NCBI GenBank assembly: GCA_017398655.1
Contig: JAFQFI010000055.1
Location: 51 to 64,050, forward strand
Reading direction: 5' to 3'
Origin: Clostridia bacterium
Lineage (GTDB): Bacteria > Bacillota > Clostridia > Christensenellales > UBA1242
DNA length: 64,000 nt
Shown: piece by piece, positions 34,881-40,405 of the stretch
Position numbering within the stretch: position 1 is the stretch's first letter
How the letters are laid out: every line of letters begins with the position of its first letter
Notes under the pieces: model-generated
Database searches by the model: none
What the model was told of the DNA's origin: nothing
Seen by the model: only the letters and a program-made list of their open reading frames with translations
Made by a program: the position numbers and the translations under genes

Positions 34881-34899
34881 TTTTTACAAAACTTTTACA
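34881..34899 (+). promoter_or_regulatory. Direct-repeat element TTTTTACAAAACTTTTACA (TTTACA half-sites 11 bp apart) upstream of the TCS operon
   Basis: TTTACA at 34883 and 34894, lying 32 nt upstream of an extended -10 (TGgTAGAAT, 34929-34937) that lacks a good -35. 18 of 19 nt match the element at 40366. Confidence 0.4.
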
Positions 34900-34961
34900 T
34901 TTAAAAAAAACAAAAACTATAAAAAGTATGGTAGAATAAATTTTGTAAAAGGAGATTTGTT

Positions 34962-35636
34962 ATGCTTAAAAAATTGTTAGTTATTGAAGATGATAAAGAG
35001 TTAAATAGTTCTTTGTGTAGTTATTTGCAACAAAACGAGTATAACACAGTTTCTTGTGAAAATGGCTTAGAGGCATTAATCGTAGTAGAAAATCAGAAAT
35101 TTGATTTAATAATTAGTGATATTATGATGCCAAAAATAGATGGTTTTACTTTTGTAGAAAAAATAAGAGAAAAAGATAAAAAAACCCCAATAATTTTTAT
35201 GACTGCAAGAGATGATAAGTTTTCAAAACAGCTTGGTTATAAGTTGGGCATAGATGATTATATTGTTAAACCTTTTGATATTGAAGAGTTGGCTTTAAAA
35301 ATAGGCGCAATACTTAGAAGAACAACTTTTGAAGAGAACAAAGAACTTGTTGTTGGTAATTTAACACTTAATTGTACAGAGCATATGGGTTATATTGATG
35401 GCAAAGAAATGTCTTTAACTGTTAGAGAATTTGATTTGTTATTTAAATTATTGTCTTATCCTAAAAAGACATTTACTCGATCACAACTTATGGAAGAGTT
35501 TTGGGATTTTGATTCTTCTGCTACATCAAGAACGGTAGATGTTTATATGGCAAAACTTAGAGAGAAAACAAGCAATTGCAATGGTTTTGAAATAGTTACC
35601 GTTCATGGCTTAGGTTACAAGGTGGTATTAAAGTGA
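34962..35636 (+). CDS. OmpR/PhoB-family response regulator
   Basis: Receiver domain (DLIISDIMMPKIDG) plus a winged-helix output domain (TVHGLGYK). Confidence 0.9.
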   Translation: MLKKLLVIEDDKELNSSLCSYLQQNEYNTVSCENGLEALIVVENQKFDLIISDIMMPKIDGFTFVEKIREKDKKTPIIFMTARDDKFSKQLGYKLGIDDYIVKPFDIEELALKIGAILRRTTFEENKELVVGNLTLNCTEHMGYIDGKEMSLTVREFDLLFKLLSYPKKTFTRSQLMEEFWDFDSSATSRTVDVYMAKLREKTSNCNGFEIVTVHGLGYKVVLK

Positions 35637-36676
35637 AAAGAAGTACAAACGAAATAAAGTTTTCTATTATTGGTTTTTTGCTATTTTTTGTAACTATTAT
35701 TATAACATCAACCAGTTCTATTGTTATTTATTACATAGCAAATAAAAATACAAGAGGAGATACTTTAATTATTGTTTTATCTGTTTTAGGCATAATTATT
35801 GTAGGGGCTTTTTTTTGTTGTATTATGGATATTATAAGAAGAAAACTTATGATTGAAAAACCTGTAAATATGATTTTAGATGCAACACAAAAAATTGCTT
35901 CTGGCGATTTTAGTGTAAAACTTTTGCCACTACATAGTTATAATAAATACGATCAATATGATTTGATTTTTGAAAATATTAATAAAATGTCTGCCGAACT
36001 TTCAAAAAATGAAATGTTAAAAACAGATTTTATATCAAATGTTTCGCACGAAATAAAAACACCTCTTACGGTAATTCAAAACTATGCAAAAACACTTCAA
36101 AATGAAAATTTAGCAAAAGAAAAAAAGAAAGAATGTTTAATTGGGCTTGAAAGGCAGACAATAAAATTATCAAATTTAATTTCTAATATATTAAAACTTA
36201 ATAAACTTGAAAATCAAAAAATAAATGTAGAAATGGCTAAGTTTGATTTATCAGAATTAGTAAGAGTTGTTACTTTGCAGTATGAAACATTATTAGAAAA
36301 AAAAGAAATAACACTTAAATGTGATATTGACGAAATTAAAATTTACTCTTCTCAAACTTTGCTTGAAATTGTAATAAATAATTTAATTTCTAATGCAATC
36401 AAGTTTACAAGTCAAAAAGGAAAAATTAATATCAGTTTAAAAAAGAAAGATAAGTATGTTGAAATAAAAGTTAAAGATAATGGTTGTGGCATTTCTAAAG
36501 AAGTGGGCAATCATATTTTTGAAAAATTTTATCAGGGCGACACTTCTCATAGTTCTGAAGGTAATGGGTTGGGGCTTGCTCTTGTTAAAAAAGTTATTGA
36601 CCTAATTGGTGGCGAGATTTTTGTAGAAAGTAAAGTGGGAGTTGGAAGTACTTTTATTGTTAAATTGGCAAATTAA
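35633..36676 (+). CDS. Sensor histidine kinase (2 TM helices, short extracytoplasmic loop)
   Basis: H-box SHEIKTPLT. N and G boxes (NAIKFT, DNGCGI, GNGLGLALV). GTGA overlap with the regulator's stop codon. Confidence 0.9.
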   Translation: MKRSTNEIKFSIIGFLLFFVTIIITSTSSIVIYYIANKNTRGDTLIIVLSVLGIIIVGAFFCCIMDIIRRKLMIEKPVNMILDATQKIASGDFSVKLLPLHSYNKYDQYDLIFENINKMSAELSKNEMLKTDFISNVSHEIKTPLTVIQNYAKTLQNENLAKEKKKECLIGLERQTIKLSNLISNILKLNKLENQKINVEMAKFDLSELVRVVTLQYETLLEKKEITLKCDIDEIKIYSSQTLLEIVINNLISNAIKFTSQKGKINISLKKKDKYVEIKVKDNGCGISKEVGNHIFEKFYQGDTSHSSEGNGLGLALVKKVIDLIGGEIFVESKVGVGSTFIVKLAN

Positions 36677-36726
36677 ATGTTTGCTATAAATAATTAGAAA
36701 ATAAAAAATTTTAATAAAGGAGAAAA

Positions 36727-38693: not shown

Positions 38694-40278
38694 TAATTTT
38701 TCTGTTACTCCAAAAGTTCCTGTTATAAAAGCAAGACAAAATGACAAAATTTATGCTGTTAAGGTAAGAACAGAGGGTAATGGTTTGGGTGTATTAAAAA
38801 CCATTATAGTTTTATCTCTTATTGCCCTTCAATTTTTAGTTTTTGCATTTGCGCAAATGTACTTTTTGCAAATTTTTAAGGGATATATAATTGTTTCTTT
38901 TGCCATTTCTTTATTAACATGCATATATGTTTTGGCAAGTGATTATCATGGTCAGGCAAAAGCCACATGGGTATTATTTTTGCTTTTATGTTCAAGTTTT
39001 GGTTATATTTTTTATTTTTTATCTGATAAGCACATTCTGTTTTCTCTTTCAAAAAGAAAATATAAAAGGATTGATGAAGAAACACACAAAGTTCAAAAGC
39101 AAAATGATATACAACATTTGAGTAAAGAAGTAAAAAATAACTGTGATTACTTATTTAATGCTGGTGGTTTTGCAACTCATTTAAAATCTAAGTGCAAATA
39201 CTTTTCAAGTGGTGCACAATTTTATGATAGTGTTTTAAAAGATTTAAAAACGGCAAAACAATTTATTTTTATAGAATATTATATTGTTTCTAACGGAGTT
39301 TTATTAAAAAGATTTTTAGATGTTTTAAAACAAAAGGTTAAAGAGGGTGTTGATGTTAGAATTATCTATGACGATATGGGTAGCCATGGAACATTAAAAA
39401 GTAAAACAAAAAAAGAAATAACAAAAGCAGGCATAAAATTGCATGGCTTTAATAAAATGTTGCCAATATTCAATATTGCACTTAATTTGCGTGACCATAG
39501 AAAAATTGTGGTAATTGATGGCAAAATTGCATATACGGGTGGAACAAACTTAGCAGATGAGTATGTTAACGAAAAACTTATGCACGGATATTGGAAAGAC
39601 AGTGGAATAAAAATTAAAGGTAAAGCAACCGACAATTTTACAATTGCCTTTTTAGGACAATGGAGATTTTTAACCAACGAAGAAATAAACTATGATACCT
39701 ATATTAATAAGGCAGAAGATGAAGCAAAGGTTGATGGAGTTGTAACCCCTTTTGTTAGTGGTCCTAACTATGATTTTTCTATATCGCAAAATATTTATGC
39801 AAACGAAATATCTCACGCAAAAGAAAAATTATATATTATGACTCCTTATTTTATTCCTGACGAAACTATTAAAAATTTAATTATAAACAAAGCTCGTGCA
39901 GGTGTAGATGTAAGAATAATCTTGCCACATGTAGCAGACAAAAAATTTGTATATATTGTTTCAAGAAATAATGCAGAAAAGTTGTTGGAATTTGGAGTTA
40001 AAGTATATACAATGACAAGCAGTTTTGTTCATAGTAAAGTAGTATTAACAGAAAACTCTGCTATTGTTGGTTCTATTAATATGGATTTGCGTAGTTTTTA
40101 TCAGCAATTTGAAAGTGCTGTTTTTACAAATGAAGTTTCTGTTTTAAAAGATATTAACAAAGATTTTGAAAAAACTATTAAATATAGTAAACAAATTAAC
40201 GAAAAGAATATGAGAAGAAGAAAACTTTCCTACAGAATGCTTGCTGGGCTTTTCAATTTAATTTCACCGTTTATGTAA
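38683..40278 (+). CDS. cls: Cardiolipin synthase (PLD superfamily, two HKD motifs)
   Basis: N-terminal TM helices. HKD motifs DHRKIVVIDGKIAYTGGTN and VHSKVVLTENSAIVGSINMD. GGGAGG RBS inside the upstream gene. Confidence 0.9.
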   Translation: MENNNFSVTPKVPVIKARQNDKIYAVKVRTEGNGLGVLKTIIVLSLIALQFLVFAFAQMYFLQIFKGYIIVSFAISLLTCIYVLASDYHGQAKATWVLFLLLCSSFGYIFYFLSDKHILFSLSKRKYKRIDEETHKVQKQNDIQHLSKEVKNNCDYLFNAGGFATHLKSKCKYFSSGAQFYDSVLKDLKTAKQFIFIEYYIVSNGVLLKRFLDVLKQKVKEGVDVRIIYDDMGSHGTLKSKTKKEITKAGIKLHGFNKMLPIFNIALNLRDHRKIVVIDGKIAYTGGTNLADEYVNEKLMHGYWKDSGIKIKGKATDNFTIAFLGQWRFLTNEEINYDTYINKAEDEAKVDGVVTPFVSGPNYDFSISQNIYANEISHAKEKLYIMTPYFIPDETIKNLIINKARAGVDVRIILPHVADKKFVYIVSRNNAEKLLEFGVKVYTMTSSFVHSKVVLTENSAIVGSINMDLRSFYQQFESAVFTNEVSVLKDINKDFEKTIKYSKQINEKNMRRRKLSYRMLAGLFNLISPFM

Positions 40279-40288
40279 AATAAAAAAG

Positions 40289-40320
40289 ATGCTTACTTTT
40301 AGTAGGCATTTTTTATTTTT
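40289..40320 (+). terminator. Rho-independent terminator after cls
   Basis: 9-bp stem ATGCTTACT/AGTAGGCAT (one G-U pair) followed by a T-run. Confidence 0.7.
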
Positions 40321-40365
40321 GCAATGGTTTTATCTAAAATTAAAAAAATTATTTCTAAAATTAGT

Positions 40366-40405
40366 TTTTACAAAACTTTAACAAAAAAAATACAAAACTT
40401 TAGAA
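40366..40405 (+). promoter_or_regulatory. Second copy of the TTTTTACAAAACTTT element, extended to four 11-bp-phased half-sites
   Basis: TTTACA(40367), TTAACA(40378), AATACA(40389), TTAGAA(40400). TATAAT -10 at 40437-40442 without a good -35. Confidence 0.4.

Follow-up and report, generated by a model that had tools for sequence, protein, structure and literature searches.

Conserved TTTACA direct repeats upstream of a two-component operon and its satellite unit in gut Clostridia: predicted operators of the adjacent OmpR/PhoB-family regulator

The OmpR F1-F2-F3 sites are several phased sites of graded quality that are filled stepwise, and the pho box of Escherichia coli replaces the -35 element, about 10 bp upstream of the -10. 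The present analysis concerns an element in a 64-kb stretch of DNA from a Clostridia bacterium (contig JAFQFI010000055.1; this whole stretch is called the window, and its G+C content is ~27%), where a 17-base direct repeat, TTTACAAAACTTTWACA, stands upstream of two neighbouring operons at a fixed distance. The first operon encodes a two-component system with several membrane proteins, and the second, here called the satellite unit, a small membrane protein and a charged protein. Repeats of this kind have been described in several organisms. The PHO box of Bacillus subtilis PhoP comprises four TT(A/T/C)ACA repeats with 11-bp periodicity (PMC11870197), the WalR consensus is TGTWAH-N5-TGTWAH (PMC9210968), and a KdpE site reads TTTATA-N5-TTTACA (PMC3264566). 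In Staphylococcus aureus, the Sae operator is a GTTAAN6GTTAA direct repeat in an autoregulated promoter (PMC5083920), and full activity of the kinase SaeS requires cardiolipin (bioRxiv 10.1101/2023.02.01.526740).

A sequence-only reading of the window had proposed that the two copies of the repeat are OmpR/PhoB-type boxes through which the local response regulator controls both its own operon and the satellite unit. This proposal was supported by phylogenetic footprinting and by phased, conserved -10 elements that lack a -35. We therefore predict with high confidence that the boxes are functional regulator-binding sites, and the adjacent regulator probably binds them and activates transcription. 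The mechanism is a known one; the two-component module is uncharacterised and widely conserved, and now has a predicted operator and a predicted mini-regulon.

Occurrence and conservation of the boxes

Direct reading and a 19-mer search of the window located the first copy (box 1, TTTTTACAAAACTTTTACA) at 34881-34899, exactly where the sequence-only reading had placed it, and the second (box 2, TTTTTACAAAACTTTAACA) at 40365-40383. The two are identical at 18 of 19 positions. For box 2, the reading had given the right sequence and the right 18/19 match with coordinates (40366-40384) one base too far to the right, and its half-site positions (34883, 34894, 40367, 40378, 40389 and 40400) were all correct. 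Only these two copies occur in the window, all remaining matches having three mismatches. Both boxes are intergenic, each in a region closed upstream by a terminator-like hairpin, and each contains at least two similar half-sites in direct orientation, 11 bp apart. An A-rich tract (AAAAAAAACAAAAAAGAAAAAAAAGAAAAACA..., 34833-34880) lies immediately 5' of box 1; the corresponding sequence in close relatives is different and A-rich too, and the tract may be intrinsically bent DNA or a UP-like element.

On the statistics of the window alone, the similarity of the two boxes is only moderately unusual. Matches of 18/19 are common among its 19-mers (137 position pairs), dinucleotide shuffles of the two intergenic regions reached 18/19 in 5 of 1000 trials (p ~0.005), and the motif, relaxed to one mismatch, shows no enrichment over the whole window (18 found versus 17.4 expected). 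The exact pattern TTWACA-N5-TTWACA occurs three times there. The third occurrence, TTAACA-N5-TTAACA at 27750-27766, lies inside a peptidase U32/collagenase-domain gene (27554-29788) and was taken as chance. The significance of the boxes derives from other genomes, not from the window.

For the comparison, 80 loci (numbered L001 onwards) from species-representative genomes, one per species, were retrieved by a scan with the regulator protein. The best regulator homologues, 56-74% identical, come from uncultured Clostridia (labelled Christensenella, Coproplasma, Ruminococcus and Oscillospiraceae) and from some lineages of low G+C whose records carry the labels Mollicutes or Bacilli. Among the loci, the order regulator, kinase, (352-aa protein), small hairpin protein is conserved, and a second, satellite-type hairpin gene lies 5' or 3' of the operon, in some cases accompanied by the gene for the charged protein or for a cardiolipin synthase.

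The pattern TTWACA-N5-TTWACA, derived from the window alone, was searched in the 80 loci and the window (1.31 Mb). It was found 34 times, compared with 3.1 expected from Markov simulations, which is an enrichment of ~11-fold. The matches were concentrated at the predicted targets: 27 of the 34 stood on the coding strand 23-154 nt 5' of a regulator, hairpin-protein or charged-protein homologue. The target space for these 27 amounts to 3.6% of strand-positions, giving a binomial value of 4e-33, which overstates the significance because the species are related and the 27 sites are not independent, the effect being very large still. The genomes span 26-56% G+C; AT-richness therefore does not explain the conservation of the box.

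Conservation of the element upstream of orthologous operons had been suggested as a check, and the element was indeed present at regulator and small-membrane-protein orthologues in many species, the box being retained at corresponding places in more than 20 other gut-bacterial species. TTTACA-N5-TTWACA precedes orthologous regulator genes in genomes with a G+C content of 32-54%, the regulator-promoter box being present in orthologous loci L001-L005, L009, L011 and L061. Satellite-type genes likewise carry an upstream box (L002-L009, L012, L013, L015, L019, L037 and L061), often with a third and a fourth phased repeat. The AAACT spacer is conserved as well, which indicates that the true unit is an 11-bp repeat.

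The other matches mostly precede genes of the same neighbourhood. Boxes were found before a 352-aa-like gene that is first in its operon (L015), before an operon of charged protein, hairpin, 352-aa and regulator genes (L017), before an operon with two SDR/epimerase genes followed by hairpin and regulator genes (L041, 7698-7718), before an ABC transporter (ATPase plus 274-aa permease) adjoining the operon (L006, 4272-4292; L012, 4383-4403), before a cardiolipin synthase gene standing as its own unit (L035, 6749-6769), and before a gene for a 304-aa membrane protein (L061, 6604-6624, minus strand) for which neither a Pfam match nor a homologue in the window was found. Since these further genes differ between species, the content of the regulon appears to vary by species. 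No phosphate-transport or autolysin gene with a box was found in the 1.3 Mb of neighbouring sequence.

Full synteny with the window was seen in contigs whose satellite proteins are 77-97% identical to its own. In these close relatives, AATyTTTTACAAAACTTTTACATTT is invariant in the regulator promoter, as is the extended -10 region, and the sequence 5' of box 1 is strongly diverged with indels. In the satellite promoter, conservation begins at the box and runs on to the start codon. In one of these relatives (L083, 13648-16213), RVT_1 reverse-transcriptase and Y1 transposase genes that are absent from the window lie 3' of the syntenic block, in what looks like a mobile-element insertion point.

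Promoter geometry

Both -10 elements named in the sequence-only reading are present (Table 1), and no TTGACA-like hexamer was found 16-18 nt upstream of either, in agreement with its statement that a convincing -35 is lacking. The promoters of the comparison loci were aligned on the start of the box, and the column of the conserved -10 was read off. Column 48-49 is where the -10 begins in the window's clade at the regulator gene, and also in promoters of a second low-G+C group (8 orthologous promoters), the intervening sequence being otherwise unconserved and without a -35. In the satellite promoters of the window's clade, it begins at column 70-71 (10 orthologous promoters). In the regulator promoters of a more distant clade, it begins at column 26, with the arrangement xAAACA-aaacw-TTAACA, 9 nt, extended -10. 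The distances of 26, 48-49 and 70-71 nt thus differ by steps of 22 bp, that is, two helical turns or one dimer footprint. These steps are spread over L016, L018, L025, L028, L029, L031, L033, L036-L038, L042 and the window; it looks as if whole dimer sites had been added, or had degenerated, between the strong box and the promoter.

In the satellite promoters, the extra 22 bp are occupied by in-phase repeats, and the proximal pair of box 2 is as far from its -10 as box 1 is from that of the regulator promoter. Per position, half-sites 1 and 2 of these promoters carried 1.79 and 1.85 bits of information, half-site 3 carried 1.43 and the -10 carried 1.70, against a background of 0.70; the distal pair of box 2 is the best-conserved stretch. 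The third half-site (AATACA, 40389) is kept as wTTACm in orthologues.

In the Ruminococcus clade (L014, L020-L023, L026 and L027), the repeat is found on the other strand (AATGTTTGAGAAATGTTAAAAT), and a canonical TTGAAA-17-TATAAT promoter follows after ~12 nt, so that both orientation and promoter type are changed. Ruminococcus flavefaciens FD-1 carries a regulator orthologue (L022).

The regulator operon and the satellite unit

The features of the region are listed in Table 1. The hairpin that ends the upstream RsgI_M-domain gene sets the regulator promoter apart as that of a separate transcription unit. The operon genes overlap or are tightly spaced, which indicates that the terminal cardiolipin synthase gene is co-transcribed with the regulator gene. 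An Rfam search of 34000-41600 returned no RNA family.

Table 1. Features of the regulator operon, the satellite unit and their promoters (window coordinates)
Feature	Position	Strand	Remarks
RsgI_M-domain gene	33457-34725		Pfam match
Intrinsic-terminator-like hairpin	34732-34760	+	13-bp stem and T run; ends upstream RsgI_M-domain gene
Box 1 half-sites TTTACA + TTTACA, spacer AAACT	34883-34888, 34894-34899	+	pattern search; position weight matrix score 28.2
Extended -10 TGgTAGAAT, no -35	34929-34937	+	hexamer starts 49 nt after box 1 start
OmpR/PhoB-family response regulator	34962-35636	+	Response_reg 5e-30, Trans_reg_C 3e-19
Histidine kinase, 2 transmembrane helices	35633-36676	+	HisKA, HATPase_c
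Membrane protein, 352 aa, ~7 transmembrane segments	36727-37785	+	no family match
Small two-helix membrane protein, 130 aa	37772-38164	+	paralogue of satellite gene 1
Two-helix membrane protein, 181 aa	38148-38693	+	no family match
Cardiolipin synthase, last operon gene	38683-40278	+	PLDc_2, PLDc; TIGR04265 333 bits vs cut-off 290
Intrinsic-terminator-like hairpin	40284-40314	+	ends regulator operon
Box 2 distal pair TTTACA + TTAACA, spacer AAACT	40367-40372, 40378-40383	+	position weight matrix score 29.5
Box 2 proximal pair AATACA + TTAGAA	40389-40394, 40400-40405	+	in phase with distal pair
-10 TATAAT, no -35	40437-40442	+	starts 70 nt (48 + 22) after box 2 start
Satellite gene 1: two-helix membrane protein, 119 aa	40478-40837	+	preceded by AAGGAG
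Satellite gene 2: soluble, highly charged helical protein, 114 aa	40840-41184	+	
Intrinsic-terminator-like hairpin	41212-41245	+	ends satellite unit

The response regulator is a winged-helix (Trans_reg_C) protein with a receiver domain, in which the phospho-acceptor residues D53, T81 and K103 are present. Its recognition helix is SRTVDVYMAKLR, and the form VDVYMxKLR is kept in regulator orthologues of at least 55% identity. Variants of this helix (MAK, MTK and MRK) track the type and geometry of the box only roughly, with L016 as an exception and with phylogeny as a confounder, and they were not used as evidence. A PDB search with the regulator returned generic family members only, the best being DrrD and MtrA (E ~1e-36), and neither regulator nor kinase reached the cut-off of an NCBIfam equivalog. 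The two helices of the kinase lie at residues ~10-34 and ~45-67 with an outside loop of ~9 residues, and HisKA follows directly at 130-194; no PAS or other input domain was found, nor is there room for a PAS. The kinase is accordingly of the intramembrane-sensing type.

The gene for the 352-aa protein is kept in the operon across loci and is the first operon gene in some lineages. The 130-aa protein and the satellite 119-aa protein share 29% identity and common motifs, and the gene for the former lies directly 3' of the kinase or 352-aa gene in nearly all orthologous loci. The small membrane protein has no Pfam or NCBIfam match. AlphaFold models it as a long helical hairpin (pLDDT 81), for which the PDB contained no significant fold match (best E 0.3). 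For these 115-130-aa hairpin proteins (those of the window and P0006, P0026, P0070 and P0116), several NCBI records give the label 'dihydropteridine reductase' and JGI gives 'glycogen synthase'; both labels are almost certainly errors that have been propagated between records. The gene at the end of the operon encodes two PLD/HKD domains, and its TIGR04265 score above the cut-off identifies the product as a cardiolipin synthase.

For satellite gene 1, a start at ATG 40454 (127 aa, from the mechanical open reading frame list) was rejected, as the gene calls of relatives use the 119-aa form. ATG 40454 is only ~5 nt from the predicted transcription start, and the extension contains the ribosome-binding site of ATG 40478. 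The gene for the charged 114-aa protein begins 3 nt after satellite gene 1 and adjoins a homologue of it in L017, L025, L029, L034, L036 and L061. Elsewhere in the window, a collagen-triple-helix-repeat protein is encoded at 26707-27426, and tandem nucleotidyl-transferase paralogues (55194-56090 and 56175-57131) share long near-identical stretches of DNA, with matches of 55277-55290 to 56276-56289 and of 55653-55664 to 56646-56657.

Proposed mechanism and comparison with known systems

The sequence of the boxes, their conservation, gene association and fixed geometry are observations; the identity of the binder, the activation and the signal are what we infer. The boxes would be operators for a tandem, head-to-tail dimer of an OmpR/PhoB-family protein, most probably the product of 34962-35636, each operator repeating an 11-bp unit (TTTACAAAACT / TTWACA) in direct orientation. 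The kinase would phosphorylate the regulator, a dimer of which would then occupy the box centred ~53 nt upstream of the predicted transcription start of the operon and recruit RNA polymerase to a promoter in which the (extended) -10 is not accompanied by a -35. The outcome would be positive autoregulation, with cardiolipin synthase and three membrane proteins expressed along with the two-component system. In the satellite promoter, the strong box (near -74) lies exactly two helical turns further upstream, with a weaker in-phase pair near -52, and two dimers would probably sit side by side, as on the four-repeat PHO boxes of B. subtilis and on the OmpR F1-F2-F3 sites that are filled stepwise. 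Membrane or envelope stress is the most plausible input, since the kinase is of the intramembrane-sensing type and the products predicted to be regulated are membrane proteins except for the charged protein.

Several points weigh against this interpretation. The loci were fetched via the regulator gene, so that only sites near that gene were visible. The transcription starts to which the box centres refer are predicted ones. Of the half-sites at 11-bp phasing that had been claimed for box 2, the third is conserved and the fourth (TTAGAA, 40400) is not, with 0.76 bits per position versus the background of 0.70. The exact 17-mer was found in at least 80 metagenome contigs from all kinds of environments, and in none of the 80 among the matches listed do genes of the system lie next to it. 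The word alone is not diagnostic; this says nothing about the regulons of genomes that carry the system.

The boxes also match the PhoP consensus of B. subtilis perfectly, including the 11-bp periodicity, and their reverse complements fit the WalR consensus, so that a different OmpR-family regulator encoded elsewhere, of the PhoP or WalR type, could read them as part of a Pho-like or Wal-like regulon. With a PhoP/WalR-like hexamer repeat, the regulator is not assignable from the motif sequence, and its assignment was drawn from co-localisation instead. Among NCBIfam models, those most similar to the local pair are PhoB and PnpS/PhoR, all far below cut-off: PhoB scored 176 versus 270 and PhoR 192 versus 334, and the pair is not PhoP/PhoR. 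Nor is it WalR/WalK (YycF, 145 bits versus a cut-off of 340; WalK, 164 versus 725), and a PAS domain such as PhoR and WalK possess is missing from the local kinase. Neither pst nor pho genes were found in the window or the comparison loci, and none of the boxes in the neighbouring sequence precedes a gene for phosphate transport or autolysis. The box instead follows this operon and the small-protein genes through many species and three promoter layouts, and it precedes the regulator's own operon, the usual signature of autoregulation, whereas other promoters of the same loci are without it. No other OmpR-type regulator was found encoded in the window. On these points together, we consider a binder encoded elsewhere unlikely and the local regulator the probable one.

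The hexamers could be read more simply as plain -35 elements in an AT-rich context (TTTACA, 18 nt, TATAAA at 34894/34918; TTAACA, 17 nt, TAGAAA at 40378/40401), both second half-sites matching TTGACA at 5 of 6 positions with weak -10-like hexamers 17-18 nt downstream. This reading was rejected as very improbable, because those -10 hexamers are unconserved in orthologous promoters, whereas the distal -10 at +48 or +70 is conserved. It also leaves unexplained the conservation of the upstream half-site and the AAACT spacer, the distances quantised at 22 bp, and the inverted Ruminococcus box upstream of a separate canonical -35. Just as improbable is binding of the local regulator as a repressor or roadblock; a position upstream of the -10 is formally compatible with it and the box of one clade overlaps the -35 region, but nothing specific speaks for it. 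Promoters without a -35 would be weak unaided, and the box centres (~-53 and -74/-52) lie on one helix face at classical activator positions. In the distant clade, the box 9 nt upstream of an extended -10 has the geometry of activation by PhoB. Chance similarity of AT-rich sequence without function might be argued from the frequency of 18/19 pairs, the unenriched relaxed motif in the window and the 17-mer in unrelated metagenomes. It is refuted for practical purposes by the enrichment at predicted promoters of species so diverse in G+C and by the fixed geometry, and in close relatives the box forms a conserved island; the residual probability is negligible. Activation by the local regulator is thus retained as the probable explanation.

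For an anonymous two-component system, there is thereby an operator that can be tested, along with predictions of its promoter architecture and regulon. The regulon would comprise the system itself, three membrane proteins, cardiolipin synthase, and a paralogous small membrane protein with its charged partner; other species would add an ABC transporter. Many uncultured gut and rumen Clostridia, in which regulation is almost unstudied, have conserved the system. Going further, we suggest only tentatively that the boxes define the regulon of an undescribed multi-component membrane-sensing module, widespread in gut Clostridia and related low-G+C lineages. It would consist of an intramembrane-sensing kinase with its regulator, the membrane protein of 7 helices and the small hairpin membrane proteins as a family, the latter perhaps serving as co-sensors or feedback modulators of the kinase. 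Promoters with two or four half-sites could set different activation thresholds for the operon and the satellite pair. Cardiolipin synthesis might be directly under control of the system; because cardiolipin can tune such kinases, as shown for SaeS, and the synthase gene lies inside the operon, a lipid-mediated feedback loop can be speculated upon. Direct two-component control of cardiolipin synthase, if true, would bear on membrane adaptation and on tolerance of membrane-active antimicrobials.

Compared with the PHO boxes of PhoP, the local boxes have the same TT(A/T/C)ACA half-site in direct orientation with an 11-bp period, the satellite promoter carries three to four phased repeats, and the regulator's own operon carries a site, as in autoregulation. 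Set against the four repeats of a PHO box, the satellite promoter has three conserved repeats and a weak fourth, and the regulator promoter has two. Unlike PhoR, the local kinase is without a PAS domain and without linked phosphate genes, and the two repeats of the local regulator promoter lie two turns upstream of the position adjacent to the -10. The WalR consensus corresponds to the reverse complement of both boxes, and a cell-envelope theme is common to the two systems; however, the orientation to the promoter is opposite in the window's clade and the operon content differs. With KdpE, PhoB and OmpR of E. coli, the locus would share tandem half-sites and a head-to-tail winged-helix dimer, and the box of the distant clade lies 9 nt from the -10, whereas the regulator subfamily and the target genes differ and the local -10 distances change in steps of 22 bp.

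SaePQRS combines a kinase of the intramembrane-sensing type and a regulator of the OmpR type with auxiliary membrane proteins from the same operon; its operator is a direct repeat and its promoter is autoregulated, as is proposed here. No sequence-level orthology between the two systems was found, they differ in the half-site, their auxiliary proteins are not related, and only the local system has a cardiolipin synthase gene inside the operon. In summary, the mechanism appears to be that of an ordinary OmpR/PhoB-type operator with a PHO-box-like architecture, and the design of the system as a whole appears most like that of SaePQRS.

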